Position numbers and translations under genes: made by a program | Notes under the pieces: generated by a model | Database searches by the model: none | What the model saw: the letters and a program-made list of their open reading frames with translations, nothing else | Told to the model about the DNA's origin: nothing | DNA from: a virus | IMG/VR virus record: IMGVR_UViG_3300045977_000235 | Coordinates: 1 to 64,000 of that record | Length of the DNA stretch: 64,000 bases | Direction: 5' to 3' (one strand) | Shown here: piece by piece, positions 30,053 to 63,677 of the stretch | Layout of the letters: every line of letters begins with the position of its first letter | Numbering within the stretch: position 1 is the first letter of the stretch

Positions 30053-31846
30053 CTATTCATAAAAGAAGTTCAACAGCATTTGTTGTTGACTCTTGAGTAG
30101 TATATCTACTATTTCCTCCGTAGATTTTGTCCGAAAATCTTCAGTACCCATATTACTAAAATGCACATCAACACCAGTTATAACATTTTGAGCAAGTTTA
30201 CAATAACTTTCTGCATGTAGCCAATGGTCAGCACCTTTATTTGTCCATATGAATCGTTCATCTTCTTGTATGCGCGTTGATGATGTTAAATGTTTAAAAT
30301 AATCTCCCTGATAGATTTCTTTACTGTTATATGGAAGTACAAATTTTTGTGTTAATACTTCTTCTAACAATGAATCTAAAGCAGGAGTTCTTTTTGCTCG
30401 CATAAACTGTCGATCTTTGTTCACGACAACATTTTGTGTATTAGAATCTTGAACATGATAATCACACAACCATACAATGTCACTATGATCTTGTTGAAAC
30501 TCTCTTGCTTTACGTTGTTCAGGTTCTGCATCAATACACATAACAGACACACTGTACCTGTTAATAATTTCAGTTAATGAAGAAAAATCTGCAAGAGCAC
30601 CAACAAACAATAATCGTCTTTCACCATTCTCTAATAACTCCCGTACAACAACATGAAGTGTACCACCGACATCAACTCCTGCTACAACTGTATTTGATCC
30701 AGCATAATCGAATTGAAAAGGATATTGTTGTTGACATAGCGACAACATACCTTCAGTTATCTTAAAACCAGATCTATTAAATGGTAAACCAAGTCTATTA
30801 TTATAAAACAATTGTAACTTCGATAAATTATCTTTTATTTCTAAATATTCAGTCCACATTTCTTCTAATGTCACTGTTGAGCTATAAATTTGAGAAAGTG
30901 TGTATCCAGATCGTTTACTAATTAAATTTTGTTTTGACCATTGTCCTCTACCGTATCTATCTATTTTAGTTCCACATTCTATACAAATCGGCCAAATAAT
31001 TTGACTTGTAGAACCTGTATATGTCGTATCACGTAATGTCACACCAAACTCAGTTTCATTGACAACATTCAAAAACCAATCAAGATTATAAAATCGTTTG
31101 CATTTCGTACACCATACTTCCCATACTTTTTGATCTGACTCTTTATATAATTTATCTATCCCAAAATCTTCTGTTGTTGGATTACCTATCCATCTTTGAT
31201 ATTTATGTTCTGATGCTTGCAATCTATCAGGAACAAGAGCAAGATTTTTTTGATCACATAAATCTACTTCATCAATAATCACAAAATCAGCAGGAAACGA
31301 TACAAAATCATCAGCAGCATTAGAACCTAAAAATCGTATCATGCCTTTTCCAAGTTCTTTGATACCCAAGTTATCTATAGAACCTACATGATCTTTATAA
31401 TACTTGACAGCATTAAGAACTTTATTCACTCTTTCAGCTACAAAACCATCACGTGTTTTTGTTTTTGTTAAGATATATGCTCCAGACCATCCTAATTCCA
31501 TCGTCATATAGAGAATATCTACAACAGCCCATTCGCTTATGCCTACTTGTACAGCTTTACGGATAACAATTTCTTTTGCTTCATCAGCATATAACTGTCT
31601 TAGATAATCCCTTCTGTACCATGAAAGAGGTTCTAACTTATGTGTTCTATGATAATTTTGTGTAAAACTCCATCTACTTAGTGCTTTCCCTTCACGTAAT
31701 TTTGCTTTTTGATCTAATAAAGCAAGTAATTTATCTCTTGCTTCTTGTGGCAGTTCTTTTAAAAACTGTTGTGGTGTTTTCTTTATACCACTTTGCAATA
31801 AATATGCTTGCAAAACACTAAATTGATTATGTTCTGATTCAGACAT
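30053..31846 (-). CDS. terL: Terminase large subunit (GpA-like)
   Basis: IVIRKAVQVGISE Walker A variant, VIIDEVD Walker B, GNPT, CxxC..CxxC, nuclease GVDVG and DHWLHA. Confidence 0.93.
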   Translation of the reverse strand: MSESEHNQFSVLQAYLLQSGIKKTPQQFLKELPQEARDKLLALLDQKAKLREGKALSRWSFTQNYHRTHKLEPLSWYRRDYLRQLYADEAKEIVIRKAVQVGISEWAVVDILYMTMELGWSGAYILTKTKTRDGFVAERVNKVLNAVKYYKDHVGSIDNLGIKELGKGMIRFLGSNAADDFVSFPADFVIIDEVDLCDQKNLALVPDRLQASEHKYQRWIGNPTTEDFGIDKLYKESDQKVWEVWCTKCKRFYNLDWFLNVVNETEFGVTLRDTTYTGSTSQIIWPICIECGTKIDRYGRGQWSKQNLISKRSGYTLSQIYSSTVTLEEMWTEYLEIKDNLSKLQLFYNNRLGLPFNRSGFKITEGMLSLCQQQYPFQFDYAGSNTVVAGVDVGGTLHVVVRELLENGERRLLFVGALADFSSLTEIINRYSVSVMCIDAEPEQRKAREFQQDHSDIVWLCDYHVQDSNTQNVVVNKDRQFMRAKRTPALDSLLEEVLTQKFVLPYNSKEIYQGDYFKHLTSSTRIQEDERFIWTNKGADHWLHAESYCKLAQNVITGVDVHFSNMGTEDFRTKSTEEIVDILLKSQQQMLLNFFYE

Positions 31847-39467: not shown

Positions 39468-40190
39468 ATGACTGAACAAGAACTACTACCATTCTTATTG
39501 TTTAAGTGTCAAGTAGGATCTTACTTGTATGGTTGTAGTATTGATACAAGTGATACTGATTATATGGGAGTGTTTGTACCACCACTTGATTATACTTTCG
39601 GCTTTCAACATATTGAACATGTTGAATGTCGAACGAATCCATCATCTTCTGGCCGAAAAAATATTCAAGAAGATAAAGATTGCATATATTTTACACTTCC
39701 TAAATTTATATTTCTTTGTATGAATGCAAGTCCTACATTATTAGAATTATTTTTTGTAAAAGAATTTGAATATTGTAATGAATATGGGCGATTGTTGTTA
39801 CAAAATAGATCGTTATTCCTCAGTAAAAAGATCAAACAAACATTTCTTGGATACGTTAAATCACAGCAAGAACAGCTATTCAAGGGTGATGCAATGTTGA
39901 ATTATTACTACAATCCAAAAGTAGCGTACCATATAGTACGATTACTTGAAGAATGCTATCAACTCTTGCATTATCAGTATATAAACTTTCCTCTTAAAAA
40001 TGCTGCTGAACTACGAAAAATACGGTTAGGGATGCTTTCATTAAATAATTTAACCGATATAATAGATAATTATATGACTACAATCAATACAGTAGAAACA
40101 TATCTTCCTGATGAACCAGATAAGAAAAATTTACAAGACCTTCAGAAGCGTATTATGTGGGACTATGCAGTAAAAGAGATGGATATATGA
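39468..40190 (+). CDS. Pol-beta-superfamily nucleotidyltransferase (YcgL/RlaP-like)
   Basis: VGSYLYG....SDTDYMGVF, KF...MNASP..LELF, KVAYHIVRL. Confidence 0.85.
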   Translation: MTEQELLPFLLFKCQVGSYLYGCSIDTSDTDYMGVFVPPLDYTFGFQHIEHVECRTNPSSSGRKNIQEDKDCIYFTLPKFIFLCMNASPTLLELFFVKEFEYCNEYGRLLLQNRSLFLSKKIKQTFLGYVKSQQEQLFKGDAMLNYYYNPKVAYHIVRLLEECYQLLHYQYINFPLKNAAELRKIRLGMLSLNNLTDIIDNYMTTINTVETYLPDEPDKKNLQDLQKRIMWDYAVKEMDI

Positions 40191-41642: not shown

Positions 41643-41969
41643 GTGAAATACACATACCAGTACGTGTACGTGCTATCATTATTACTCCTGAGTATATTCT
41701 TTTCTCCTGTATCTTCTGCTACACTAACATGGACGTATAATGATAATCTTCATGAAGGATTTATCATTTTTCGACGACAAGCAGGTACAGGATACATATG
41801 GCAAGAAATACAGAGAGTGGATAAAAACACGCTCAAATATGTGGATCAACATAATGATGTGTTGTATTGCTACTATGTCAAAGCCTATGCTGGTACACGT
41901 ATATCAGCACGGAGCAATATAGCATGTATGACGGTAATCAATCCTACAGATTTGGTGATACAAGAATAG
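41643..41969 (+). CDS. Exported fibronectin type III-like protein
   Basis: Signal peptide ending VSSA, then TLTW....EGFIIFRR..W..I...YVD....YCYYVKAY....SARSNIAC. Confidence 0.75.
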   Translation: MKYTYQYVYVLSLLLLSIFFSPVSSATLTWTYNDNLHEGFIIFRRQAGTGYIWQEIQRVDKNTLKYVDQHNDVLYCYYVKAYAGTRISARSNIACMTVINPTDLVIQE

Positions 41970-42036
41970 AGACAAGTTCCTTGTCTCTTAAAAAGAGATA
42001 AAATTTCGGGGAACATAATATATATAAAAATAATTA

Positions 42037-42067
42037 TGGAGAGATAAATATATCTCTCCATTTTTTT
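42037..42067 (+). terminator. Rho-independent terminator ending the (+) operon
   Basis: TGGAGAGATA-AATA-TATCTCTCCA followed by T7. Confidence 0.8.
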
Positions 42068-42109
42068 CTTTGAAAAATTCTAGTGAATAGTGGTATTAAA
42101 TTATTTAAT

Positions 42110-43600
42110 TTTTAAAATATTTTTACAAAAAATTTTAGAAAATTTTTAGAAAATTTTTAGACAAAAAACAAATATACACTCGCCCTGACCCCCTCTGTCA
42201 TTTATTTGACAGACCCCCTGAGCCATAGTCACATAGCTAAACGCCTATGCATCTATCATCTCTTTTTTATATTAGACCTTAGCTATACATCTATATGGTC
42301 CTTCGTTATACATCTAATAAGACCTTAGTTAAGTACCTATATGTTATATAGCTAAGGACCATATAAGTATATACACATATAGCTAAGGACCGATATGTAT
42401 ACTAAAAGTCTAAAATGAGAATGAGAATCACTATGAGTCCTTAGTTAAACACCTATATATTCTCTGTATCATAATGATACAGTATTACATATGTATTACA
42501 TTGTGTATAACATGTATTACATATGTAATATCATCTGATATTATCAGATATATATACTCTTTTATCTGATAATAGTACCATGTATTACACCATATAATAT
42601 ATGTAATATATAAATACACTCTACATATTTTACAAAGTAAAAGCTTACATATAGCGTGTTACGTATACGTAACATACTAAACGTTTACACAGTACATAAT
42701 ATGTAAACGTTATGATACGTTTACATAATAACGTAAACGTATTGATACATAGTGCATACGTATGCATACGTAGTAATATGTAAACGTTATAGTATCTTTA
42801 TGTTATAAACAACGTTGTTTACGTATACGAAACACCATACACGTATGCATATGGTGTCTTATGTAAACAACAAAGCACAATACAATACTAAGGTATACAT
42901 ATATGGTGTTATATATACATATGCTTTCATATGAAAGCACTATACTCTATATGTAAACATTATGTATCATTCGTTTACTTAGTAAACGTTTACACTCTAT
43001 ATGTATACATATATAGTAATACGTAAACGTTATAGGATATATGTCTCTTTTTATCTTCTCTTATTCTATTATTATCCTCTCTTTATATATTATATAGAGG
43101 ATAGTATCGTATGTTATGCTCTTATTAGTAGAGCATATATGCTCTCTTATAAAGAGCATAGTGTATCTGTAGTACTTATAGAGAAAGAGAGTATTACTAT
43201 AGAACATAGGCGATTAAATTATTTAATCTGTAGTCTTGTAGTGTGCTCTTATGGTGTAGTAAATACGTAGTCTACAATATGCCTCTATAATGCCGTTTTT
43301 TATGTATACGTATTGAAAATAAGACGTTTTTTTAATAGGTGAGTATGTTTGTATGTCTTTATTAAAAAACAAGCTATATGCTCGTATAAGAGCATTATTG
43401 ACATATACACGTTTTATACAAGATCTGTATAAACCTTATACAAGTCTTATATAAATCTTGTATAAGACCTATACATAATGACAAATCATTATCAATACAT
43501 AGCAAAATGAAAGAGCATAAAAACAAGGTGAGTTTACAAAGTAAACTCTACAAGTACATATAGACTCTATACAAGAGTCTTGTACTTGCTCTTATGCTCT
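42110..43600. repeat. Non-coding left flank of the island: phased A-tracts, TGTCA-N6-TGACA box, dense short palindromes
   Basis: AAAATTTT(T)AG x3 at 42129-42160; box at 42196-42211; repeated GACCTTAG/CTAAGGACC, AACGTT, TACGTA, GTAAAC. Confidence 0.75.
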
Positions 43601-43632
43601 TATAGCTTTACTTGCTTATTTCATAAGCAAGT

Positions 43633-46600
43633 TTATTGCTTATACAAGACACCATACACGAATCCTGTACTATCTTCTATGATACATATACTATGGTATG
43701 GTTCTAAACATGGGTATATTTCCATGTCATCTATATCTATCTCAATTTCTGTTACTGTACCGTTTTCTCCTAAAGCAATTATTTCCCCTATACCATCTAA
43801 AGACAATAGATGAAAATAAGCAACATATGCTTGCTCATTTTCATATTTACCTGGAGAAACAATCCTACCATCTACTATTCTATAGTCTTTTTCTATTTGC
43901 TCTTTTAATGTTTGCCCGAATTTTTCATTGTGTAGCATATGCTCTTTTTCCTCTCTTTTAATTGTTTCTTGTAGCTCTTGATAGAGTCTTATGTCGTTAC
44001 CATATGGATCATCATACTCTGCATTTTCATGGTAGAGCATACTGTTATCCTCTCTTGACAATGGCATAGTGTAGTAGTCAAAGTACTGCATTGCTCTGTA
44101 TCCTCTCTTGTATTAAGTACCGCAAATAATACAAGGATAATAGATGCAATGCTTGTTTGTTACGTTGTACTGTACTTTACAAGCAGTACAAAGCATACAA
44201 TCTGTACATTGATACTGTTTTGCTTTGCAGTCTTTTTCCTCTGGTACATCGCTTGCTTGCTCTTTTTGTTGAGCAAGCAATAAGTGTAGTTTATTGAGAC
44301 TTATTTGCATTGTCTTTTATCCTCTATAGGCGAATTTTTTATCTGTCGTATAGTAGACGTACTGCGCCAATCTTTCCTTGTAGTTTCGTAGTATGCCTCT
44401 GTTTATATTGTCTTGAGTCCATCTGCTTTGTTTGTCATATGATGGTATGCTTGTATGGCAGAGTTTTTTAAACATGCTATATGCTTTATTAGAAGCAATT
44501 TCCAGAGTATCACAAGACTCTATATCCTTGTATGTTATCAAGTCTTGTGTACTTGCTACACTGTACCCTAAAGCATAGTGTGTTTTCTGTGACATTGTAA
44601 AAGTATCCTCTATAAATTGTTGTTTTATATGTTGCTCTATACACTTGCTTATAAAACAACATATACACTTGCTACAGACTTGCTTGTAGTCTGTTTATTC
44701 TACTTGTGTAATTTGCCCGAATTCCTCTCACTATGCCACAAGAGTACACACTAAAGACGTTATACTGTCTTGTCTCTTGTAGTGTCTTGAGTACCTTATA
44801 CAATGCATCTGCCATTGTATCGAATTCAGTATAGCAGAGCTTATAGAATACCTCTCTTGCTTCTAAAGACGTTGTAATAGTACCGTAGTGTGACCATGTT
44901 ACAGTATAAGGTACTTGTTTCCCTTGTATGATTAAATCTTGCCAAGACGCAATTGCAAAGCCTTGACTATATCCTTGTCTGTAGATGTCTCTTTTTGTCA
45001 TGCGCTTTTTTCCTTGTCGTGTTATAAAGAGCATATGATAGACATATGCTCTTGCTCTTGTTTGCTTACTTACTCTTTAATGCTTTTATCCTCTCTTTAT
45101 AGTTTTTCTTAATACCTGCCGCTATACCATCATCAAAAACAAGCCAGACATCATAAGATTTGCTTTCTTGTGTCTCGTTTAATGCTTGTGCAGTAAACTC
45201 GAAAGGTGAGTATTCTCTATTCATTTCCTCTGCATCATAGCAGAGCAAGTAAAACAGATCTTCTCTGTCTGTATTGTCGTTTACAGTCTCAATACAAGCA
45301 TTGTAGATGTGTTTAGGTACTTTATCACCTATAGATGGTAAGTCTTGATAGGATGCTATCATGTAACCTCTACTGTACCCTATGCTGTAAATGTATCGCT
45401 TATTCATTATTTGCATACCTCTTGCTGTATTGTGTGCATTCTCTGTCGTAAAGAATCAAGTACCTTGCCAGTGTAACAATGAAACGATGGTATAGTGTCT
45501 GTAATGCTTGTTTGCTCTATATAGTACCTTTCCATTGCATATTGATAACACTCTACTCCTACCATGCAAAACAAGTCTGCAATGTATCCTCTATAAGTAC
45601 TTTTCTTGCTTTCATAGTGGTCAATTGCTTTGCGTGCTATTGTCTCGTTACTGCTCTGCATTGTTGAGTATCCTACGATAGATGATTCTGTAGTATGCTG
45701 TATACGGTGCATTTATACGGTAGTCTTTTAGATTGTCTCTTGCTTCTTTTCTGCTTTCACTACAGCAAAGATCTTCCCACCTATCATAAAAACCTTGGAC
45801 AACGTAGCAGTACAAGTACTTGTTTGCTCTTTTCATTGTGTGCTCTCTTTCCTTGTAGGATTAAATTATTTAATCTGTACTGTGCTCTGTACCGTACTTA
45901 CTTGTTACGGTACAGAGTATGCTTTTTTCGCTCTACAATGCCTCTATTTTACGTTGTAATGTTTGCCCTATACTTTCCTATGCTCTCATGAGAGCAATGC
46001 ACTATAGAGCATTCTAGGCTGTTTTTTCGGCCATTGTAGACGTATATGCTTGTGGCACAGTAAAGAGCTTGCTTGTATCTTTACGCCAGACATAAGCGCC
46101 AGAGTGCAAGCAATTATCGTATATATAGAAGTAATCAATTGCTTTGTACTCTGGCGTATCAATTGCAAGTCTCTTGCCGTTTACGACATAAGAAAACACA
46201 AGCTTATGCCATATGTCTTTAGCTTTACAGTCTTTATATCCTCTAATGTACTCTTTCATGTATAAAGGTAGTCTATTATAGTCATCTGTCATTAGTACAA
46301 TTTCCAGATACTTGTTAGTAATCTGCTTGCCAGAGTAACAGTAAAGCTCTGCATTGCAGTATATATCATCTATACGTGCTAGCATTCTGTCTTTTATGTT
46401 GAGCATTCTATCTTTACGCATTGCTTTTGTTTTCCTCTTGTAGAGCTTGTCTGCATTCTACGAATTTTACATTGTTAGTGTTTAGGTAGTGAGTAAGCAA
46501 GTATTCGATATAGTCTATAGTCTCAAGATTGCTATGCATATTGAGACTTTCTCTTGCCACAATAAGAGCTTTATCAATGGCTCTTACTAAAGCTCTATAG

Positions 46601-47632
46601 TCTGCATTATATCGTTTCATAATAAGACTCGTTACTACCTTTGTGCTCTTTAATAATATCGCCATTCTCTAATAAGTAAACGCTTTCATTGGCACATCTA
46701 CCATATGCAGACTTACTATGGTCAAGGTATATGTTAAACGTCAACAGAGCTTGTCTTTTATTGTTTGTCGTAAAGACGAATCCTACGTTACCAACTAGCA
46801 CACTATACCGATCCATTTTGCTTTCCCTTATATGATGCTATCATGGTACTTGCTTATGATTTGCTATACCATGATAGCGTTTTGCTTTAGTTCTCTACAC
46901 TGTAGAGCTTTCTTGCTTTATACTTCTTAACAAGGTTATTGTACTCTCTTGCTTGTAAATGCAATTGCTCTATAGGCAATATATCCTCTCTTATTAAGTC
47001 ATGTTCAAGATTACTCGTTTGGCTTGTATTTGTCTCGTAACAAGACTCTACTCTATAGCATTCCTCTTGCGTGTTATAGTGGTATACCATAACGAGTCTA
47101 TAAGGTTTACCATCTGTATCATTATTCCTACGTACTACTTGATAGAACCAGATATTACTTTGTGCCATTATGCTTTACCTTTCCCTTGCCATTGATAGGA
47201 TCTGCAAATAATCTACTTGCGATTCGATAGCATGAGATACTAGATCCATGATAAACCAAGCATTGTGTAACATATGGGTCTGCATTTTAGGAGGTATTGT
47301 CTTTTCTACTTCTTGCTCTATATAGTTTTTCAATGTCGATACTTTATCCTCTCTTGTACTTTTTGCTAGTTTTTCCAGATACGGTAAATGTACCTTGTCA
47401 TTATTTAACCATAGGCTAACAATGAAAGTCTCAAAATTTGTCATACTCTGGTATTCTGCCATTGTTTGCTTTTCCTCTATTTGTCGTTACCGTATACGCA
47501 AGTCTGCTCTTTTACTACTTCCATATGCAATGTATGCATTCTCGTTTCATAGTAAATATTCATATGCATAATAGCGGCATATGACAGTACTACAAAAAGA
47601 GCAAGTACACTTGTCTTGATAGCAAATAGCAT
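43633..47632 (-). other. Cluster of about 12 small hypothetical (putative early) genes, including a tandem paralogue triplet at 44317-45407
   Basis: Co-oriented ORFs with AGAGGA/AAGGAA RBS. The triplet shares Y..GYS....AS.QDL..F..LC..GI..NY..R. Confidence 0.65.
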
Positions 47633-47689
47633 TTTGTTTTCCTTGTGTAGTGAGAGCATAGCAAGCAAGTACTATGCTCTCAGATTAAA

Positions 47690-49711
47690 TTATTTAACCT
47701 CTTTATAGAGAATAGCATACATATGTACTGGGATTTGTTTATGATACTTGCGTAACATTTTCAATGCCGCAGTAATCTGTTTACTTGTTAGCTTGTCTCT
47801 TTCAGCAAGAGATCTGCCAAATTTGCCGTCTAATTTGTTGTATCCTATATCATTCTTCTCTGTAGCTTGATCCAGGTTTCGATTGTCCAGAAAACGACAA
47901 GCAGAAAGTACCGTATCATGGATCTGCTTTGTATACGTTACCTCTTGCACCGTAGTCTGTACCGTAGTTTTTCCTACTGTGCTCTGCAATACCGTGTTTT
48001 TGGTGTCTGGCGTAGTCTGTACTGCGTTTTGTTTCTCTACCTTGCCAGAGTATAGGGTACTTGATTTGCTATGCTCAGATTGGCTTGTAGAGCTTTTTTC
48101 TCGTATAGGTTTATCCTCTCGTATCGTGACCTTGTTATCAAGTACTGCGTTTATAACACGGTACTTGTTAATAAAAGCTCTGATAAAAAGATTGTCCAGA
48201 GTGTTAGGTATTACAAGGTACTGTGCTAGTACTGCGTTTTTCTGTCCTATACGTAACAGTCTATCCTCTGCTTGTATGTTCAATAATGGTGACCATTCTG
48301 CCTCTACAAAGATTGCAATAGATGATCTAGTAAGCGTAAAGCCTACGCCTATCGCTCCTATAGTGCCTACAAGTACTACTATTTGTCCATCTTGAAATTG
48401 TTCTATAGTCTCTTGTCGTTTCTTAGGTGACACACTACCATCTAAAAAGATAGTATTAAAGTACTCTGCAATTTTAGCACCAACCTCTTTATGGTGAGTA
48501 AAGATTACTAATGGTGTAGTACTGCTCTCTTGTACTACCTTTATATGTTCTATAGCAGGATTAACTTTTGCTTTGCCAAGTTTTGCTCTTTCCTCTGCTA
48601 TATCCTCAAAACTTATCTTGTACTTGCGTAATACTTCTTGAAAAGTATCTGGATCTAGATCTGTTAATTCCTCTATATTGAAAGGTAAGCTACTATCTTT
48701 ATATGTCGATTGTAGCTCTATTATTTGCCTTGTCTTTTCTGGCAAATCTTTTAGAACTTCGTCTTTAGTCCTACGAATCATAATTTTACTGCGTAGTAAG
48801 CTCTGCAATTCGGATTCGTTACTACTACCTTTATTATTCCAACCATACCGACCTTGACTAGCAGAGCAATACCTTTTTTCGTAGTATGATTTGCTATCGA
48901 ATAGCTTTGCATTATGAACAATCGGCCATAGTTCTATAGGACGATTCAAGACAGGAGATCCTGTCATATATAGTACTTGTGTACCATACTCAACAATGCC
49001 ATTGATAGCAGGTATTGTATTGTATGTTCTGGTAATCGGATCGAATTCCTTATGTTCTGGTTTTCCTATAATTGCTTTAGTACGTTGTATATCTGGATTC
49101 TTTAGTAAATGGGATTCGTCACAGATTACTAGATCCCAAGGATGACAGAGCTTGTCATATAAAGCTACAGCAAGATCGTAGCTTATGATAACAATACCGC
49201 TATCTGCTACTCTGTCAGTACTTCTTGTTACAAGACAATACTTGTGTGCATCTACAAGCCAAGAAAAAGACTCGTATAACCAGTTAAGCTTGAGACTACT
49301 AGGGCAAACAATCAAGATGTCTTGATAACCTTTATAGTTTATCAAGCCAAGAGCTTGAATAGTCTTACCAATTCCCATGTCGTCAGCAAGTAGACATACT
49401 GGCTTGTCAAGCAAGTATTCTATACCTGCTATCTGATACGAGTAGTATTGCTTGTCTGCATTGCATGGTACTTGTAGATTGCTTGTAGTAGCATAGGACG
49501 CTTTTAAGGTATTGATAAACGGTAGCAGATTGTCTCTTGTTTCCTTGTCTGCATATGCAATTAGATGCATAGCATTCGCGGCATTAGTGGTATACCATAC
49601 CTTTCTGGCATAGTCGAAACGCATATTTGCCTTGTGTGCTAGCATTCTCTCGTTATAGTCGCAAGTAAAGACATACTCCGAATCTTTCATTGTTAGTATA
49701 GGATCTGCCAT
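47690..49711 (-). CDS. SNF2-family (HARP/SMARCAL1-like) helicase/ATPase
   Basis: LADDMGIGKTIQ, IVCPSSLK.NW, ICDESH, MTGSPVLNRP, GVGFTLT, QAEDRLLRIGQ. Start moved to ATG 49711 (GAGGT RBS). Confidence 0.92.
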   Translation of the reverse strand: MADPILTMKDSEYVFTCDYNERMLAHKANMRFDYARKVWYTTNAANAMHLIAYADKETRDNLLPFINTLKASYATTSNLQVPCNADKQYYSYQIAGIEYLLDKPVCLLADDMGIGKTIQALGLINYKGYQDILIVCPSSLKLNWLYESFSWLVDAHKYCLVTRSTDRVADSGIVIISYDLAVALYDKLCHPWDLVICDESHLLKNPDIQRTKAIIGKPEHKEFDPITRTYNTIPAINGIVEYGTQVLYMTGSPVLNRPIELWPIVHNAKLFDSKSYYEKRYCSASQGRYGWNNKGSSNESELQSLLRSKIMIRRTKDEVLKDLPEKTRQIIELQSTYKDSSLPFNIEELTDLDPDTFQEVLRKYKISFEDIAEERAKLGKAKVNPAIEHIKVVQESSTTPLVIFTHHKEVGAKIAEYFNTIFLDGSVSPKKRQETIEQFQDGQIVVLVGTIGAIGVGFTLTRSSIAIFVEAEWSPLLNIQAEDRLLRIGQKNAVLAQYLVIPNTLDNLFIRAFINKYRVINAVLDNKVTIREDKPIREKSSTSQSEHSKSSTLYSGKVEKQNAVQTTPDTKNTVLQSTVGKTTVQTTVQEVTYTKQIHDTVLSACRFLDNRNLDQATEKNDIGYNKLDGKFGRSLAERDKLTSKQITAALKMLRKYHKQIPVHMYAILYKEVK

Positions 49712-49816
49712 TGTAAATATACCTCTTATTAAACGCAGTAAAGAGAGTAGCATAGTGTACCTTGTCATTATTAAGGTACAAGGTACAAGGTAAATGTACC
49801 TTGTACCATGCCATTG

Positions 49817-50188
49817 TTATCGTATCGTTATGTTGCCTGAAATGCTACCTTTCCTCTCTTTCTTAGGTAGACTTTCTCTTATGATTTGCTCTGTTACCTT
49901 TAGACTTGCACCGTACTTTTCTTGTGCTCTGTCTATATCCTCTTGTGACATACTACAGATCTGATTAAATAATTTAATCGCTCTATCTTGTGAGCAATTG
50001 AGAACGCCACATAAACGAGTAAGAGTATCAATGTTTACTGGCGTTTTTTGGTAGTACGTAGGCAGACCAACTATGATGTCACCTTGCAAGTGTAGCGTTT
50101 CATCTACTGTATATCTACCAGACTTTAGCTTGAGTGTATCTGGTATCTTGATTGCTTTAATTGCAGCATATAGTAAGTCTCTTGTCAT
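49817..50188 (-). CDS. Hypothetical protein
   Basis: GAGGT RBS; contains a palindrome copy encoding IKLFN. Confidence 0.6.
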   Translation of the reverse strand: MTRDLLYAAIKAIKIPDTLKLKSGRYTVDETLHLQGDIIVGLPTYYQKTPVNIDTLTRLCGVLNCSQDRAIKLFNQICSMSQEDIDRAQEKYGASLKVTEQIIRESLPKKERKGSISGNITIR

Positions 50189-50205
50189 TAGCTTATACCT
50201 CTATT

Positions 50206-50532
50206 CTAGTGCTGCTTTTTTAACTTGATAGACATGACATCTGCAAGTAAATCTATCATCTCTTGCTTTGGCATTGTCCAACTATCGCCTAAAATACTTT
50301 CATAATGTTTCTCTGTTATGCTGTGCAAGTATTGTATCTGGTTTAATACTTCCTCCCAAGTACTATCTTTATGTATCATATACATAACAGCAAGTTTTGT
50401 TTCTTGCGATGGTACTTTACTTGCTACAGATTGCTTGTGATTTGCTTGTGCTCTTTTTGGCTTTGCTATTACATCTTGAGTACACAAGACAAGAGACACT
50501 ACAAGCAACATAAACACGCAAAACTTTTTCAT
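50206..50532 (-). CDS. Exported protein with signal peptide
   Basis: MKKFCVFMLLVVSLVLCTQDVIA. Confidence 0.6.
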   Translation of the reverse strand: MKKFCVFMLLVVSLVLCTQDVIAKPKRAQANHKQSVASKVPSQETKLAVMYMIHKDSTWEEVLNQIQYLHSITEKHYESILGDSWTMPKQEMIDLLADVMSIKLKKQH

Positions 50533-50874
50533 TCTCTTTCCCCTATGAAACGAGAGCACACAAGCGTATTGTGTAGTGTGCTCTCAGAATACCGTTTTTT
50601 CGTCCTACAATACGCCAAATTTCGATTTGTTTTCCAAGGTAGTGTGTTTATACATCTTGAGAAAACAAATCGTTTTTAGGGCAAAACAGAGCATAAAGTA
50701 AAAAAGACTCGTTACACTCAAGACAGAGCAACAAATTTGCTGCATCTACTATTGTGCAAGTATCATCTGTTACTGCTTGCTTGCAATTATCACAAAAGCT
50801 TTTGATTGTCATATGATGCTACTCCTAAAAAATAAAGAGAGCACAGTATCATACTGTGCTCTCGTATTGTTTAC

Positions 50875-52233
50875 TTATTTGTTGAGCTTTGCAATTTTAT
50901 CATAACAGACTTTCAAGTCTGCTACATAGTCCAGAGTACCATCTTTGGACTTTTCAAAATTGATAAGCATAAGCAAAACATTTTGCAAGCCAACACTTGC
51001 TCTTGCTCTTACTACGTTTGTATTAGCAGACATAAGCAAAGCTTTTACTGCGGGATCTTTCTCTTTAGAGAAGTCTGTACCTAAAGATACTGGCGTATCA
51101 GACCTTGGCGTACTTGATACAGTACCTTTATTTGTTGGTGCATTGTTAGGAGTAGCAGGTACATTGCTTGTGCTAGCAGGTACATTGTTTGTACTTGCTG
51201 GCTTGCTAGTACTTGCTTGTGACTTGCTTGTGCCAGTGTTAGCAGTACTAGCAGATCCCTTCGGTCTGCCTCTTGTACTGCCTTGTGTGCCAGTACCTTG
51301 TTTTGGTGCTTTGTTGCCGTTTTTAATGATTTGCTGTGCTAGTGCATCATTCTGTACTTTAGTCTCTTGTGTAGTGCTATTGTTGCCGTACTTCTTACCT
51401 GTCGCAACAATACTCTGAGCAGTAGTAGCACTAATAAGACCTTTCTCTACTGCCTCTACTACCTCTGGTGTAGCTTGTAACAAGCTAAGCTTTTGTGTAA
51501 CCCAAGGTGCAGTTTTGCCCATTTTGCTAGCTATATCTGCTTGAGTCCATTTATGCTCTTTAATCAAGCAAGCAATACACTCTGCAATTTCCATTGCTTC
51601 TAATGATTTGCCTTGATTGCTTGTAAGATTTGCAAACAAGAGCTTGTCTCTTGCTGTATCCTTGTCTGCATACATAGCAGGTAAACCATTGATAGCAAAA
51701 CCATCTGCTATCAATTCTCTTGCTGCTTGTAAACGTCTGTGACCTTCGGTCAAGTACAGAGTAAATGCACCGTTTACTGTATCTGCATATACCTTGATAG
51801 GAGGAAGATTCGCAGTACCGTTTACCTTGATATAATCTTTCAAGTCTTGCAAATCAAGGTTTTTTCTAGGATTAATACCTGCAATTGTTTGTACTTTGTT
51901 AGGATCGACAAGGAAAGCGTCTAAAGATTGCAAGATACCATTAGACTCTGGCGTAGTGGTAACAGTAGACTTGCTTGCTTTTGGTGTCTTTACTTTAGGC
52001 ATTGTAGCAGTATCCTCTTGAGTAGTGGTAACAGTCTCTTGCACCGTAACAGTAGACTTGTTAGCTTTAGGCGTTTTTGGTGTCTTATTTGCTGGTATGG
52101 TAGCAGTATCCTCTTGTGCAATGATAGACTTTGTTTGACCGTTTACTGTAATCGTAGCAGACTTGAGAGCAGTATCCTCTTGTACGTTGTTAGTAACGAT
52201 AGACACACTAGCAGACTTTTTAACTTTAGGCAT
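50875..52233 (-). CDS. ParB/Spo0J-family protein with disordered Lys/Thr-rich arms and an AT-hook
   Basis: NPR..L..L..I...G...PI.V...L.EGHRRLQA (ParB N-domain, GxxR), NL..NQGKSL..ME.A, HTH WTQADIASKMGKTAPWVTQKLSLL, V..G.IS...A, TRGRPKGS. Confidence 0.88.
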   Translation of the reverse strand: MPKVKKSASVSIVTNNVQEDTALKSATITVNGQTKSIIAQEDTATIPANKTPKTPKANKSTVTVQETVTTTQEDTATMPKVKTPKASKSTVTTTPESNGILQSLDAFLVDPNKVQTIAGINPRKNLDLQDLKDYIKVNGTANLPPIKVYADTVNGAFTLYLTEGHRRLQAARELIADGFAINGLPAMYADKDTARDKLLFANLTSNQGKSLEAMEIAECIACLIKEHKWTQADIASKMGKTAPWVTQKLSLLQATPEVVEAVEKGLISATTAQSIVATGKKYGNNSTTQETKVQNDALAQQIIKNGNKAPKQGTGTQGSTRGRPKGSASTANTGTSKSQASTSKPASTNNVPASTSNVPATPNNAPTNKGTVSSTPRSDTPVSLGTDFSKEKDPAVKALLMSANTNVVRARASVGLQNVLLMLINFEKSKDGTLDYVADLKVCYDKIAKLNK

Positions 52234-52324
52234 TGCTTCTATATCCTTGTGAGTAGTGAGAGCATAACACTATGCTATGCTCTCTTGATTAAATTATTTA
52301 ATCCCTAGCAGATGGACAGTAGTT

Positions 52325-52636
52325 TTATAGGCTTTCTCTTTCTCTGATAAGTTTATCAATACGACAATCAAGATCCATCTTGTATTGCTCTTGCAATGCA
52401 TCCTTGGTAGTCTGCAAAGTCTCAAGCTCTTTTTGCAAGAGCTTTATTCTGTTTTCCCTACACTCAATTGACCTTGTTACCTCTCGCCATTGTTGACGTA
52501 CAGACTTTACAAGGTACTGCTTGCCAGATACATACTTGCTTGCTGGTATTGCTTTCTTGCCAGTATATGCTTTCGTACTAGCAAGCTTGCTGTACATTGT
52601 TGCTGGCATTGTCTCAACAATAGTCTGCTCTTTCAT
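52325..52636 (-). CDS. Coiled-coil hypothetical protein
   Basis: AAGGGA RBS; heptad-rich C-terminal half. Confidence 0.6.
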   Translation of the reverse strand: MKEQTIVETMPATMYSKLASTKAYTGKKAIPASKYVSGKQYLVKSVRQQWREVTRSIECRENRIKLLQKELETLQTTKDALQEQYKMDLDCRIDKLIRERESL

Positions 52637-52988
52637 CTGCTTTCCCTTATAGTGTAGTGAGCAATTGTTACAAGGTACAAGATACGATTTGCTTATAGTC
52701 TCTTTCCTCTCTTATAGTGTGCTTTTACTCTCGCCAGAATTTTGCATAATGTACAAGGCAATAATGGCAGAAAAGATACTCAAGACAAGCAAGCTTGTCT
52801 ATCATCCTAAAGATCCATACTGGCATAGTATAGTGTACTTCTTGCTTTTCCCATTTACAGCAAGTAATACCTTTAAACTCAATATGCCTCTTGTATCTGC
52901 CATTGATAGCGTTTTGTACAAGATACTTGATTCTGTTTTGCATTGTGCTTTCCTCTCGCTTGCACTCAAGACAGAGTGCTATGCAATA

Positions 52989-53018
52989 ATTGTACCATTC
53001 GGCCACTAATTAAAGCAA
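52989..53018 (-). promoter_or_regulatory. Putative promoter TTGCTT-18-TGnTACAAT
   Basis: Shares TTGCWTTAATT...TACAAT with the sites at 36704 and 55085. Confidence 0.55.
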
Positions 53019-53052
53019 GTAAAGTTTTGATGCTAGCAAATCACTAGCAAGT

Positions 53053-54114
53053 CTACAGAGAAAAGTACATATAATCGCTATATGTACTGTAATGTGTCTG
53101 CTTGTTAAACAGAAAAACAATTGTACCTTCGTGACCTTGTACTGTTACCTCTATATAATTGTTTGTCTCTTTTCTTACTCTGCCATACTGTAAGCTATTA
53201 TCTGCCATACTCTGGATCTTTACTTTTTCCCCTATCATATGTTTGTTAGTAGATACGGTATGCTCTACAGTAGGATGCACTCTTACAAGGTATGGATTAT
53301 TTGCTACTCGCTTGACCTCTATCTTGTCGTTTACCTTTAGACCATAATGCGATCCGTATAATTCCTCTGCTTTACTGTTACGTCTTACTCTCACTACTAC
53401 TCTGCCATTATTTACTGCGATTACTTTAGCTTGTGCCATTGTTCATACTCCTATGGTAAATGGAAAAAGCACAGTACAATACTGTGCTCTTGCTAGCTAG
53501 TCTCTTGTTTCCTCTTGCTCTCTTTCATCGTTACAAGTAGAGCACACTATAACGATGAAAGAGTAATCTGCATTGTGCTCTACAATATAGGCAGTATTGC
53601 CACAGTCTGGACAACAAAGATCTTCCATTATGCTTTCCCCTATATATGATTTGCGACAAGAAACAAAACAAGGATAAACAAAACGAGACTTGTACAGACA
53701 ATCCAGAAAGCAGACATTAGTTTATCCTCTTTACAGTGTAGTACTTGCTATCTTTCTGTACCCTATGTACTACACGCCTATAGTGAAAATGCATTAAAAC
53801 ACGGTAACAGTATCTTTCCTCTCTTATTACTCTACCATACTGTGTCTTACCATCTATAGAGCAAGTAATAGATACTTCGTATTCTGTAAACATACTTTCC
53901 TCTCTTACTCGTTAGGATACAGAAAAAGATAATCTTGGAAGGTACAACGTAACTGTGAGCTTTTATTAAACCTATACTGTACCTTTCTGTTACCGTAAGA
54001 GGTAAGAGCAATTGTGATATAGTCGCTTGTTTCTCTTACCACTACACCGTATTGCGTGTAACTATCCATTGTTCTAACAGTCTTGATTGTTTGCCCTAAC
54101 AATTGATACTGCAT
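53053..54114 (-). other. Three related small beta-barrel-like proteins (53053-53439, 53717-53893, 53905-54114)
   Basis: Shared QYG[RV]V.[RK]E motif; 53717-53893 (58 aa) translated by hand. Confidence 0.65.
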
Positions 54115-54149
54115 TATGCTCTTTCCTATCGGATTAAATTATTTAATCT

Positions 54150-55075
54150 GAGAGCATACCAGAGTATTGCCTTGTACTCTTTAAACAAGCTTTGTCTTTA
54201 CTCACAGTAAAGTCTGGCGATTCGTAGCACGTGCTACAGATTTGCTTGTAAAGTATGCTCTCTTTCCAGAGTACAGTAGAGTGCTACCACTACTCTTTAA
54301 CAAGCTTTGCGATACTCGCAAGTATCGCTTGGTGATCCATAGCATGTAACATGCTACAGTTTTGCTTGTACCTTGTACTCTGTAATGCTCTGCACTATAG
54401 ACTTGCAATCTATAATTGTTGCATTACAAGCAATACCTAAGTCTTATTGTGTGCTTAGTTAATACCTCTCTATACTAGCATGGTATATATTGCTTGTGCT
54501 CTGCAATGTACAGAGTCCAGATAGACAAGAGGTATAGTCTTACAAGGTAAGTTTTGTTTACAAGAGAGCATACCTTAGTATGCTGCATAACAAGTAAACA
54601 ATGTTTGCTCTGCTATTGTCTCTTATCATCTGCTTTTATTTTTTCATCTTGTCTCAAGTACACAATATATATACGCTCTTATCATGGCGTATGCTCTTAT
54701 CATTCGCAAGAGTGTACTTCTATAGTCTTACTTGTTACTCGTATCAATGCACCGTTTACTTTATCAATATGCTATGTTTGCTTATGCAATCTTATAGACT
54801 TACTTATTGATAGGCTTTCCATATGCGTATGCTTTTTAGCTAGCGTCTTATATGATACTTTGCAATGCTATAGGCTGTTATGGTTTGGCGTACCAGAGGA
54901 TAGTATTGCATTGTGTTTTACAATGTTATCTATCCTGCTAGGGTTATCTTAGGCTAACCCTTAGTTTTACCTGCTAGCATACCTCATGCTGTTACTGGCT
55001 CTACTGCTTGAGTACCCTACCAAGTCTCAAGTATGCCTCTACATCTACCGTATGCCTGCTATTTGGTTTTAAAAG
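54150..55075 (-). ncRNA. Candidate large structured RNA or long leader
   Basis: No credible RBS-led ORF, many hairpins, and directly downstream of the promoter at 55085-55114. Confidence 0.4.
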
Positions 55076-55084
55076 AGCAAAAAA

Positions 55085-55114
55085 ATTGTAACAAGTTTAT
55101 CGGAATTAAAGCAA
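55085..55114 (-). promoter_or_regulatory. Putative promoter TTGCTT-18-TACAAT heading the island transcription unit
   Basis: Same architecture as 52989-53018; palindrome copy 40 bp upstream at 55154. Confidence 0.55.
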
Positions 55115-55149
55115 GCAAACTTTAACTGTATTTTTTTTCAATATGTTAT

Positions 55150-56322
55150 GCGGATTAAATTATTTAATCCGCTATATTCTGGCGTGTTTTCTAGGCTTTC
55201 CTCCTATGTACCCAAAGGTACGCGCTTGCATATGTTGCAAAGTGTATGCCAAACTATGGCATTATTGATACTCGTTTCTCATTGTGTGCATTTTTTCTGT
55301 TTTGCCCTATATCGTAGTCTGGCATACTTTTTGCTTGTGCGTTTTGCCCTATCGAATGCCGTTTTTTGGTGTCTGTAAAGCTCTATACTGCGTTTTGATG
55401 GTAAGACGTGCTACCATACTGGCATATGCCGAAAAATTGAAAATAGAGAAAGCATACGCATCTTGACTAGCAAGTATGCCATATTGTAATTTTTTCCTCT
55501 CAAGTCTGCATAGTCTGGCATACTTTATGCTGCGTAAAAAAATTGCATTATTGATATTTTTTATCATTCCTCTGCTAACAATAGATCATAGTCACAGCCT
55601 ATTAAAAACAGACTTTTTCATAGAAAAAATTCATAAAAAAATTTTACGAATTTTACCTTGTACTGTCGTTTACATCCTATGCATAACGTTTACACCATAC
55701 GATAAATGTATGCTTTCATCTGTTTTTATCCTCTCTTATTCTACTGTTATCCTCTAATGTCTGCTTTTATCCTCTATCGTATGCTTTTATCGTATAACGT
55801 ATACGATAGTATGCAATCGTATACTTTTGACGGATTAAATAATTTAATCGTTTACATTTTGCGTGTTACGTATACGAAAAGATCCATCTGTAAACTTTAT
55901 TATCATAAAGTTTACAGTCTGGCAGAGTGCAGACTGTTAGCTAAGGTCTTAACAATCTTATAGCTAATCACCTATCGACTTCGGCCATGATTAAATAATT
56001 TAATCTTTCTCATTGTGAGATACTTTTCAAAAATGAAAATGAGAATCAAAAAGATTAAATAATTTAATCGCCTATTAAAGATCTTTAAGACCTCATAGTG
56101 AGTACATAAAAAATAATAAGACCGCAACAATAGACTTATAAAGACCGTAGAAATATTGGTATACGCCTATATGGTCCTTAGACGTATAGCTATATATACA
56201 TATTGCTGCGGTCTTTATTAAAGAATTTAATCGTGTCAAAATTTTGACACGTCAAAAATTTTACACCTGTTAGAATTTTGACAATAAAGACCTTGTTTTT
56301 ACGTCATTTTTTTGACATGGGG
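55150..56322. repeat. Non-coding right flank of the island with four TGTCA-N6-TGACA-like boxes and four palindrome copies
   Basis: Boxes at 56234, 56250, 56268 and 56302; palindromes at 55154, 55834, 55990 and 56054. Confidence 0.75.
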
Positions 56323-56484
56323 GTTGCGCGTGCGTGCGCGTGTGACGTGTGTGCGAGAGGGATATGTGAGAAAAGAGAAGGTCTTTGGTGGGAGTGTGTG
56401 TATTTTTGGTGAGTGTATAGGAAATTTTATAGAGATATATGTATATAGTATATACATATATACATATATCTGTGTGCGAAATAT

Positions 56485-59057: not shown

Positions 59058-59735
59058 TTAATATCGTACAAGGATATTAGGTTTACCTACCTTGTATAAC
59101 CATTCTTCTCCTTGTGCATTGTGTGCATCCCTATATTGTGGGAATACATATTTACCTACATTCTCTGAATAAGATTCAAGATTGAATCCTTCTGTGTTAC
59201 GAATTACATATCCTTCTAAAGAGTTCTCATGTGTTGAATATGCAGACTTCTTCATTTTCATATCTACCGCAGCTTGTATAGCCTTTACATCATACATGCC
59301 CGTGTAAATAACAGGTACGTGTATAAGATCTAGCTTCTTGATTATCTTCATTGTGTCATAATAAGATAAGCAATAATGCCCTATCCAAATTGAATGAACT
59401 AAAAAATAATCAGGTAACAAATCGTACTCTATAACATGTTGCATGTACATGTTCTCTCCTACGATTCGATACCTTGGATCTAGCTTGTAACAAAGAAGTG
59501 ATTGTAATTGTGCTATGTAATGTGTACTACTGTGCTTCATAGGAGTTAAGCTACGTGTGTGCCAATAATTTTGTGCCACAGTTACACATCCTCCGTCAAC
59601 CTTTTCTGTAACTACTACTTCCTTTTGATTAAATACACTATCGGACTTTAATTGTCTATCACCTTTTGATATGTTAGACCAAGGGAGATGATAGACTCTT
59701 GGATACTTTATTTTCTCTGTCGTTTCTTCTGTCAT
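59058..59735 (-). CDS. ATP-dependent RNA ligase-family protein
   Basis: KYPRVYHLPWS, motif I TEKVDG, GEN, EGYVIRN, KYV. Start at ATG 59735 overlaps the MTase stop. Confidence 0.82.
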   Translation of the reverse strand: MTEETTEKIKYPRVYHLPWSNISKGDRQLKSDSVFNQKEVVVTEKVDGGCVTVAQNYWHTRSLTPMKHSSTHYIAQLQSLLCYKLDPRYRIVGENMYMQHVIEYDLLPDYFLVHSIWIGHYCLSYYDTMKIIKKLDLIHVPVIYTGMYDVKAIQAAVDMKMKKSAYSTHENSLEGYVIRNTEGFNLESYSENVGKYVFPQYRDAHNAQGEEWLYKVGKPNILVRY

Positions 59736-60502
59736 GTGCGTTCCTTTATTAAATAATTTAATCTTTTTATACAAATATTATAATACTGTTTTTCTTTTTC
59801 TATTCCTATAAATTGCCGATTAAGATTTTGTGCAGCAACTAATGTTGAACCACTACCTGCACAGTTATCAAGAACAATGTCACCCTCATTTGTATAGGTC
59901 TTTATAAGATACTCACAGAGAGCTATAGGTTTTTGTGTAGGTACATAACCTCCTTCACTTTCAGCAGTCCTAAAATATTGTACACTTCTTGGGAAACGTA
60001 AACCTGATTCGTTTTTTAATTCTACTGGTTTACGTTCTCCAGCACCTTTTGATAAGGTTTCGTTGTTCTTACCATTATCTATCCCATAATTATATGGATT
60101 ACCTTTAGTCTTTTGTGGAAAATATCTCATCCATTGTTTTGTATTTTGGGCTGCTGGATATTTAGAGAACACACTGATTATCTCATGTGTTTTCAATGGT
60201 TGAAATCTTGCATGAACATAATTACTTCCTTTTGATTTTTCCCATATCCAATCATACTTAAACAAACGAAGATTAGAAAGTCGTAAATAACTACTAAAAG
60301 GTTCACTACCAAAAAGAAGAATAGCACAATCATCTTTAATGATCCTCTCGTAGTGTTCCCATAACTTATCAAATGGTATAAGAACATCCCATTTGCAAGC
60401 GGTTGTTCCATAAGGTAAATCACAGAGTATCATATCTATTGATTGATCTGGTATATCTCCCATTAATTCTAAACAATCACCTAACCATATTTCTTTCTTC
60501 AT
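59732..60502 (-). CDS. DNA amino-methyltransferase (N4-C/N6-A, beta class)
   Basis: GDCLELM, ILCDLPYG, PTQKP..L.EYLI, VLDNCAGSGSTL. Confidence 0.93.
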   Translation of the reverse strand: MKKEIWLGDCLELMGDIPDQSIDMILCDLPYGTTACKWDVLIPFDKLWEHYERIIKDDCAILLFGSEPFSSYLRLSNLRLFKYDWIWEKSKGSNYVHARFQPLKTHEIISVFSKYPAAQNTKQWMRYFPQKTKGNPYNYGIDNGKNNETLSKGAGERKPVELKNESGLRFPRSVQYFRTAESEGGYVPTQKPIALCEYLIKTYTNEGDIVLDNCAGSGSTLVAAQNLNRQFIGIEKEKQYYNICIKRLNYLIKERT

Positions 60503-62508: not shown

Positions 62509-63222
62509 TTATATGTTTTCTATATGATAATATACTTCATGGCTTGGTTTATGAGTATGGTTAGAATAACTTTTGCTTATAGTAGTTAAATTATTAAACG
62601 GTAGCCATGTAGCACCAGACTTTTCACACACTATAATTTGTCCCTTTCTTCTACTAATCCATAATGCAAGGTGTTCATAATCTATTTTACTATATCTATA
62701 TTCTGTGCTTATGTTATGTTGATACGGTGGATCTATCATATATGTAGCATACTCTGATGGTATAGGCATACTTTCATATGACCAATTACTTATCTTCCAA
62801 TGGCGTATGTACTGTAACTGTGATGCTATTCTGTGTCGTGTTCGTTCATCCCAAAAGTAACCATTCATATGTTCTCTTGCCCATCGTGATAGTGTCTTGC
62901 GTGGTCTACCAGTACCTTTAGTGAGCCAGAATCGTATCAATAGTTGTGCTTCATGGGAGAGATAGGATACTTCATCTATATGTACCTTCACATCAGGTAG
63001 TGAAAGTATCTCTTGTTCTGATACATGGATCAAATAGTCCCATAGTGTAGCTACATTTTCATCTCTATCATTAAGGATTATTTGTTTGTGTGGATACCGT
63101 AAACTGTATCCTGCGCTGCCACTAAACGGCTCTACAATTATGTCATATTTGGGAGTCGGGTAGTACCTTGCTAATCTGTACTTACTGCCAAAAAAAGAGA
63201 AGAATGCTCGTAGTGTATGCAT
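62509..63222 (-). CDS. Dam-like (alpha class) DNA adenine methyltransferase
   Basis: FSFFGSK, VEPFSGSAGYS, ILND, IDPPY. Start coupled to the upstream stop (TAATG). Confidence 0.85.
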   Translation of the reverse strand: MHTLRAFFSFFGSKYRLARYYPTPKYDIIVEPFSGSAGYSLRYPHKQIILNDRDENVATLWDYLIHVSEQEILSLPDVKVHIDEVSYLSHEAQLLIRFWLTKGTGRPRKTLSRWAREHMNGYFWDERTRHRIASQLQYIRHWKISNWSYESMPIPSEYATYMIDPPYQHNISTEYRYSKIDYEHLALWISRRKGQIIVCEKSGATWLPFNNLTTISKSYSNHTHKPSHEVYYHIENI

Positions 63223-63677
63223 TAGTCTGTCCATTCTTGTATTTTTTGTTGTATTTCTTTGCGCCCGAAAGGTGATTGACAACGTTGTAAATATTCTTGA
63301 TACGTATTAAAACCTAATGCTTCTGCTAATTCTTGCATCACAACGTATGCTTCATTAACATCTCTTGGCATATAATAGAAGTTCTTTTCTATATCACCCT
63401 CATTTCTCAACCTGAGAATATGCATAGTAGGTCACAATACACCTTTTGTTGTTGCCCATATAGAAGGATCTAATGTATAGCGATGATGTTTAATATAATG
63501 TTTTTCTTCATAAGACAACATAACTAATCTCCTAGTGATTAAATTATTTAATCCAGCTTGTCTTTATGATTTTCTTTATACGATGCTGCAAAATTTGCCC
63601 CGACAAATAGCCCTATCAAAAACCCGACAAACAACACAGCAAAAAACATAAACCATACACCTACCATGCTATCCATA

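Follow-up and report, generated by a model that had tools for sequence, protein, structure and literature searches.

An orphan ParB-like phage protein with an AT-hook as candidate reader of a dispersed all-AT palindrome

Which protein reads a symmetric, all-AT palindrome that a phage genome carries in 64 copies, and could it be the ParB-like protein encoded among them? This question is raised by the IMG/VR virus record IMGVR_UViG_3300045977_000235, a sequence of 103,465 bp with a completeness estimate of 76%, of which the first 64 kb (positions 1 to 64,000) form the window analyzed here. An earlier, sequence-only reading of the window had singled out positions 50875-52302 as an orphan ParB-like protein with an HMGA-type AT-hook and had proposed this protein as the reader of the palindrome lattice. 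The coding sequence (CDS), identified from the list of open reading frames (ORFs) and from family matches, occupies 50875-52233 on the minus strand, stop codon included, and encodes 452 amino acids (aa); the proposed span held for the gene itself, and its end at 52302 takes in an upstream palindrome. The product almost certainly belongs to the ParB/Noc/KorB family, as a divergent member without a ParA, and no better candidate reader was found for the 64-copy palindrome. That it does read these sites is the most economical hypothesis, which we put forward as our leading yet tentative interpretation of the sequence.

Family, fold and AT-hook of the ParB-like protein

Family assignment rests on several profiles and a structural model. 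The protein matches PHROG 1033 (“ParB-like partition protein”) at 1e-33 over aa 77-285, and Pfam HTH_ParB (PF17762) at 7e-13 over aa 210-283 (49 bits against a cut-off of 22.6), in agreement with the helix-turn-helix (HTH) that had been read from the letters; the Pfam KorB domain (PF08535) reaches 22.7 bits against a cut-off of 22.3 in the same stretch as the stronger HTH_ParB match. A HMMER scan of 1.84 billion representatives returned 2,996 relatives. The profile search that had been proposed as a check, carried out against the PDB with a profile of 69 relatives, retrieved Spo0J (2e-38), Noc (2e-36) and KorB (6e-23). In the AlphaFold2 model, the core (aa 100-310) has a predicted local distance difference test score (pLDDT) above 90 and is matched by Foldseek with probability 1.0 to ParB, Noc, KorB, PadC and sulfiredoxin, with target-normalised TM-scores of 0.65 to the KorB-KorA-DNA and Caulobacter ParB-parS complexes. 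A PDB search with the N-domain alone gave HisF as its sole result, a match that is spurious.

All features of the protein lie on the minus strand. A disordered N-arm rich in T, K, V and P (aa 1-95; 51949-52233; pLDDT below 50) precedes a ParB/Srx N-domain of CTPase fold (aa ~100-205; 51619-51936; pLDDT above 90 and Foldseek matches) and the ParB-type HTH DNA-binding domain (aa 210-283; 51385-51606). A disordered linker rich in S, T, P and N follows (aa 310-392, with aa 315-382 disordered in the layout of the model; 51058-51306; pLDDT 39-50), its length and sequence differing among homologues, and the protein ends in a C-terminal three-helix domain (aa 394-451; 50881-51054) with helices at 394-413, 416-429 and 436-451 and a pLDDT of 75-90. 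This last domain is kept in the four closest homologues, has no Pfam match and returned nothing at 0.9 in an ESM Atlas search; on the model, it is presumed to mediate dimerisation. The low-complexity arms contain KTPKTPKA and PASTSNVPA, as had been noted. Within the N-arm there are three K-rich QEDTA(T)xP repeats, also found in the roughly 50% identical homologue P0158 and visible in the DNA as three plus-strand copies of GCAGTATCCTCTTG; they may be short linear motifs for some partner.

The nucleotide pocket is represented by the motifs NPR (R123), G164-H165-R166-R167 (51733-51744) and N206. Across the 69 relatives R123 and R167 never vary, and more than 90% keep each of G164, R166 and N206; the variable position of GxRR is equally often His and Glu, with 28 occurrences each. 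KorB, whose equivalent motif is GARRYR, is still a DNA-stimulated CTPase, and its residues R117 and N146 correspond by motif position to R167 and N206 here (PMC11790492), so that GHRR is not an argument against nucleotide binding. The nucleoside triphosphate preferred by such proteins is not reliably predicted by sequence analysis or by AlphaFold3 (PMC12704722). With R123, G164, R166, R167 and N206 all present, nucleotide-dependent clamping and sliding are plausible for this protein.

No ParA lies in the window, as the sequence-only reading had stated, and none is found in the whole 103,465-bp record, which extends the statement to about 76% of the genome and leaves a cognate parA elsewhere without a counterpart in that portion; the sole AAA_31 signal, of 14 bits, falls inside a UvsX/RecA-like gene. 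A regular-expression search of the protein for the ParA-activating motif [LFI]G[KR]G[LFI], as defined in PMC12704722, found no occurrence. These results bear on the idea of a true partition ParB of a plasmid-like prophage, whose ParA and parS would fall outside the recovered sequence. The incompleteness of the record leaves room for such genes, and phages of the P1 and N15 type do partition a plasmid prophage with ParB. The absence of ParA and of the ParA-binding motif speaks against this, as do the lack of a tyrosine integrase in a six-frame search of the record, a replication and nucleotide-metabolism gene set that looks like that of a large lytic siphovirus, the absence of ParA from each of the five cultured phages whose ParB is of this subfamily, and the organization of parB as a single unit with its own terminator. 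We consider partition highly improbable.

The AT-hook, TRGRPKGS, was confirmed at aa 320-327 (51253-51276), in a basic-flanked segment with a pLDDT below 50. Its RGRPKGS core is identical over seven residues to AT-hook 2 of HMGA1, and we estimate the chance expectation of RGRP at about 0.004 per protein of this size. The hook begins about 13 residues past the last helix of the DNA-binding domain, and so could reach DNA beside or inside the HTH site. There are only four close homologues (P0002/P0157, P0158, P0007 and the near-identical P0155), and the ParB proteins of P0157, P0158 and P0007 are 47-55% identical to this one. In P0002/P0157 and P0158, at about 50% identity, the string RGRP[KS]GSAST.NTG is kept inside an otherwise variable linker; the hook is found neither in P0007 nor in 65 more distant relatives. 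This distribution marks the hook as a recent acquisition under selection. We found no published description of a ParB with an AT-hook.

The palindrome lattice and its possible readers

An exhaustive listing of perfect palindromes with half-sites of 5-10 nt and gaps of 0-4 identified the TTAAATWATTTAA family (TTAAAT-W-ATTTAA) as the only over-represented palindrome family in the record. The window holds 42 copies at one mismatch or fewer against 0.28 expected, and across the whole record the 15-mer occurs 52 times without mismatch and its 13-mer core 64 times. Conservation covers the full 15-mer, with the outer A present in 115 of 128 half-sites and a partial G one step beyond. Spacing of the 64 copies is more even than random (coefficient of variation 0.63), none of 5000 random placements being as regular. 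In a genome that is 85% coding, 36 copies are intergenic or overlap gene ends, often standing 10-20 nt ahead of a start codon or contributing the TAA with which the gene before them ends; the remaining 28 are within ORFs, in three stop-free frames, where they are read as IKLFN or LNYL. When the central base is oriented by local gene direction it is A in 35 copies and T in 29, which is no orientation bias, and no conserved -35/-10 flanks were found around the copies. Symmetric and lacking both bias and promoter flanks, the palindrome looks like a self-contained protein-binding site and not a directional promoter.

The two lengths of the site are unevenly distributed along the genome. The symmetric 17-mer GATTAAATWATTTAATC accounts for 9 of the 11 core copies in a block from 42 to 56.4 kb (42000-56400) and for 4 of 53 elsewhere (Fisher p = 1.2e-6), which suggests that the 17-mer and the shorter form are two classes of site. 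This 14-kb block, with its 9 of the 13 17-mers, consists of small minus-strand genes including parB, and the copy upstream of parB is among the 17-mers. Another group, at 55.83-56.23 kb (55833-56231), packs four copies together, three of them full 17-mers and one a 15-mer with one mismatch. The DNA at 55833-56231 and at 56310-56360 is non-coding and bears GTAAAC, TATACG and AAGACC repeats with a G/C-rich GCGTG tract, and a similar non-coding stretch rich in repeats lies at 42100-43600; these repeat-rich stretches (55.8-56.4 kb and 42100-43600) may mark the limits of the block, an origin or the ends of the genome. Loose ends seen at palindromes (run X19), which match the flanks of other copies, are most simply explained as short cross-alignments, not as recombination.

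As for what could read such a site, no other DNA-binding domain was found by PHROG or Pfam in about 60 other ORFs. Six-frame searches of the record recovered no Sigma70_r4, HTH_3, HU or FUR domain above the family cut-off and no second HTH_ParB. This leaves the ParB-like protein as the only recognisable site-specific DNA binder in what these scans and searches covered. Nevertheless, it is quite possible that the protein and the palindromes are unrelated, and that the sites have another reader, either a small regulator encoded by the phage or a host factor, such as a Fur/PerR-type protein or an accessory factor of RNA polymerase. The ParB-like protein would in that case act on a single phage site, on hairpin repeats of the GAGAGCA family described below, or on host DNA resembling parS or the Noc-binding site (NBS), disturbing host chromosome handling. 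Room for such a regulator exists, as most ORFs are without annotation, and orphan ParBs on mobile elements serve diverse functions (PMC12704722). The many copies 10-20 nt before starts, or giving a stop codon, also resemble a gene-expression signal. Set against this separation of protein and site are the missing Fur, sigma, HTH_3 and HU genes, a symmetric and unbiased site that is unlike a standard promoter, the 28 copies within ORFs, the clustering of 17-mers round parB, and the fact that no prokaryote genome with clustered copies appeared among the matches listed.

Exact-motif scans, made of viral contigs with the 15-mer and of genome contigs with the 17-mer, gave scattered single matches, with no second lattice genome and no identifiable host among the matches listed; scans of this kind do not show that other lattice genomes are absent. 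Searches of viral, metagenome and genome contigs with the protein, the homologue alignment and P0158 as queries did not find the loci of the closest homologues, and two distant loci from a further alignment search carried no repeated palindromes. Control loci for the background frequency of repeated palindromes had been chosen by the AT-rich 15-mer and were set aside as biased. A 13.9-kb contig with 90% terminase identity contains 7-8 copies of the motif and is too short to include parB. Terminase relatives at 47% identity or less carry no motif, with a ParB in none of the five records searched (the 47% relative being outside that search), and their distance is too great for them to serve as a test of co-occurrence.

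The comparison also took in five cultured phages whose ParB is of the same subfamily. Bacteroides phage Versailles carries six copies of TTTTGC-N4-GCAAAA within about 400 bp (record 1572-1946), forming an iteron- or centromere-like array. Agrobacterium phage Milano carries ten TACAAAT-N-ATTTGTA sites (TACAAATNATTTGTA), seven of them perfect, spread over 41.7-54.4 kb (record 41743-54409), immediately downstream of its parB-like gene and upstream of small genes. Their 7-1-7 layout and inner AAATNATTT are both common to the sites studied here. Each Milano site occupies the spacer that separates TTGAC from a TA(T/A)AGG -10-like element, and together they look like an operator-in-promoter regulon beside an orphan ParB/Noc-like gene. 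By analogy, the Milano parallel with the present phage is suggestive.

Several observations weigh against the ParB-like protein as reader of the lattice. At the level of the protein, the N-domain that had been read from EGHRR has the motif in place at aa 163-167 (51733-51747) and has no match to Pfam ParB_N (PF02195), its identity coming from PHROG 1033, the PDB profile and the AlphaFold2/Foldseek comparison; TIGR00180 scores 43.6 bits, under its curated cut-off of 58.45, and the best NCBIfam match, the Noc model TIGR04285, scores 46.4 bits under a cut-off of 315. At the level of the site, the sites known from publications for ParB, Noc and KorB contain G/C in their cores and are not all-AT. 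In three of the five cultured phages of the same ParB subfamily no perfect palindrome recurs; members of the subfamily thus do not in general come with a lattice, a point that also favors treating protein and palindromes as unrelated. In Milano, the position of the palindromes in promoter spacers marks them as operators, which another regulator could bind. A small dimeric regulator, encoded among the ~24% of the phage genome absent from the record or among about 118 small ORFs outside the individual scans, or else a host factor, could be the reader, and the 7-1-7 layout is the classic format of sites bound by Fur-family regulators (PMC3293774). In favor of the ParB-like protein stand its position as the only HTH protein found, the single over-represented palindrome family, the concentration of 17-mers round its gene, the lack of promoter context and the Milano analogue. 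The proposed pairing of protein and site thus gains in support, and the support is circumstantial.

If the ParB-like protein does read the palindromes, a dimer would recognise the symmetric all-AT 7-1-7 site ATTAAAT-W-ATTTAAT, placing one HTH in the major groove of each half-site and its AT-hooks in the minor groove, which is narrow at AAAT/ATTT. The protein would then bind the DNA of its own phage at many positions, much as KorB does at OB and Noc at NBS. Because the 17-mers cluster in the parB block and one stands 55 nt upstream of the gene, autoregulation of parB and first loading within the 14-kb block would be expected. From its sites, the predicted nucleotide-dependent clamp would close and slide. 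The downstream effect might be a KorB-like silencing or timing of phage genes, an option raised by the many sites that adjoin ribosome-binding sites (RBSs), or a VirB-like shielding of AT-rich DNA from host silencers. In its fullest form the model describes a lytic-type phage in which an AT-hook clamp loads at about 64 or more evenly spaced sites, coats the chromosome, and either silences and times genes or evicts host silencers or nucleases; as a whole this is rather unlikely. The early expression and the phage “chromatin” put forward in the sequence-only reading are conjecture, as are CTP-dependent loading and spreading. A clamp that ratchets DNA entry from the early block is even more speculative.

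The parB locus and its phage

The palindrome that had been placed 55 bp upstream of the start codon is there: the 15-mer ATTAAATTATTTAAT occupies 52288-52302, within the 17-mer GATTAAATTATTTAATC at 52287-52303, and 55 nt separate it from the A of the ATG. This 17-bp palindrome (GATTAAAT-T-ATTTAATC) is a candidate operator or loading site. Between it and the RBS, a hairpin without a U-tract is predicted on the minus strand at 52258-52284, with a 12-bp stem (GAGAGCATA...TATGCTCTC) and an RNA fold of -21.7 kcal/mol (z = -4.2). The RBS, AAGGA at 52244-52248, stands 10 nt ahead of the ATG at 52231-52233. Directly 3' of the stop codon, an intrinsic terminator on the same strand (50827-50863) consists of a 12-bp GC-rich stem followed by TTTATTTTTT. 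From its sequence, parB looks like a separate unit made up of palindrome, hairpin, RBS, CDS and strong intrinsic terminator; no sigma70-like promoter was found 5' of the gene on its own strand. At 47685, 52289 and 54134 a palindrome stands a few nt ahead of a hairpin belonging to the GAGAGCA...TGCTCTC family, after which come an RBS and ATG, an arrangement that looks like a recurring module of the early block.

Right past the parB terminator begins an ORF of 54 aa (50648-50812, minus strand) with a CxxC...CxxC pattern and a weak double zinc-ribbon match, whose product is a possible small nucleic-acid-binding partner judging by these motifs. In one soil metatranscriptome run, four contigs of 151 nt are 100% identical to parts of 50559-51315, covering the 3' half of parB and the DNA downstream; such matches do not show transcription.

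The record also encodes three DNA methyltransferases (window 59732-60502 and 62509-63234; record 91231-91968), two of which are paralogues in PHROG 67. Their presence raises the possibility that the ParB-like protein assists or activates an enzyme of DNA modification, bringing one of these three methyltransferases, or some other enzyme, to the DNA. Fusions of ParB folds to methyltransferases are frequent in phages (PMC12704722), and phages are known to encode ParBs that activate thymine dioxygenases (5mYOX), enzymes that depend on them (PMC13229309). Those ParBs, however, have no DNA-binding domain (PMC13229309), whereas the protein here has a full HTH and an AT-hook; a six-frame search found no Tet_JBP dioxygenase in the record, and the methyltransferase genes are not adjacent to parB, the nearest being about 7.5 kb away. 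A role in DNA modification is improbable on this balance.

The source phage was present in many soil metagenome runs of 2023, possibly from one campaign, and none of the cultured phages compared is closely related to it. PHROG and Pfam annotation of about 60 ORFs identified a tape measure protein, a central tail fibre, a portal and a GpA-type terminase, together with PolA, DnaB, a primase, RNR, a recombinase and an RNA ligase. The large terminase, of lambda GpA type (PF05876), lies at 30053-31846 on the minus strand and suggests cos-type genome ends. The RNA ligase gene is at 59058-59735, and a gene for a nucleotidyltransferase of the RlaP family is at 39468-40190. A PADLOC scan returned nothing meaningful.

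Comparison with known ParB-family systems

Phages and other mobile elements commonly encode orphan ParB-CTPase proteins, most of them uncharacterised and almost none with an assigned DNA target or function (PMC12704722). The present phage offers a clean test case, with one ParB protein, one massively repeated symmetric site and an AT-hook matched to the composition of that site. If the pairing is true, the principle common to KorB, Noc and VirB, in which a protein loads at palindromes, slides and regulates at a distance, would extend to the genome of a virulent-type phage, and the ParB HTH and AT-hook would form a new composite module for reading DNA. Should the pairing prove wrong, a reader for the lattice and a target for the ParB-like protein would both remain to be found.

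KorB of plasmid RK2 shares much of the architecture, although its profile match is weaker than those of Spo0J or Noc. The OB sites of KorB are 13 bp long with a G/C core and number 12, and its C-terminal domain is SH3-like. The site here is all-AT, 15-17 bp long and present in 64 copies, and so differs from OB in all three respects, while the C-terminal domain is modelled as helical; KorB also has no AT-hook. The layout is the same in both proteins, with an intrinsically disordered region, a ParB N-domain, an HTH, a long flexible linker and a C-terminal domain (PMC11790492), and the P-motif is non-canonical in both, GARRYR in KorB and GHRR here. As a global regulator, KorB recognizes odd-length palindromes dispersed over its replicon, some promoter-proximal and some distant, loads at OB, slides in a manner dependent on cytidine triphosphate and silences distant promoters (PMC11790492). 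KorB works with IncC, a ParA, and with the clamp-lockers KorA and TrbA, and none of these was found here, a KorA-like HTH being absent both from the roughly 60 annotated ORFs and from the six-frame search for HTH_3.

Noc of Bacillus is a ParB paralogue that does without ParA and binds dozens of dispersed palindromic NBS sites, some of them inside genes; Noc structures rank near the top of both the fold and the profile comparisons made with the protein here. It is not a Noc equivalog, with 46 bits against the 315 required. Noc has a membrane-targeting amphipathic helix, whereas the N-arm here (aa 1-95) is disordered and without a helix in an AlphaFold2 model of low confidence in this region, which could miss a helix that forms only on the membrane. 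The NBS has a GC core, and Noc is a host cell-division factor and not a phage gene.

VirB of Shigella, with its virS site, is an orphan ParB-family CTP switch, as the present protein would be. VirB loads at its site, spreads on AT-rich DNA and counters a silencer that binds the minor groove (PMC10770331); the AT-hook here would compete for the same minor groove as the silencer that VirB counters. VirB differs in having few sites and no AT-hook. AT-hooks of the HMGA type, which also occur in bacterial CarD, have R-G-R-P-K-G-S in a disordered, basic-flanked segment, as is the case here; the difference is that the present protein has a single hook, fused to a ParB-type HTH.

The closest phage counterparts are the ParB-like proteins of PHROG 1033, such as Milano gp51 and that of Versailles, none of which has been functionally studied to our knowledge. 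They fall into one subfamily with the protein here, at 30-34% identity and with the motifs NPR, G[HE]RR and SNxGKPL, and like it they are encoded without ParA among replication or early genes. At about 250-325 aa, they are without the long arms, the AT-hook and the C-terminal domain seen here, and the Milano palindromes are set in sigma70-type promoter spacers and confined to about 13 kb, whereas the lattice here is genome-wide. Orphan ParBs on mobile elements have already been described, and what is new in this phage is the fusion of an AT-hook to ParB together with a possible genome-wide lattice.

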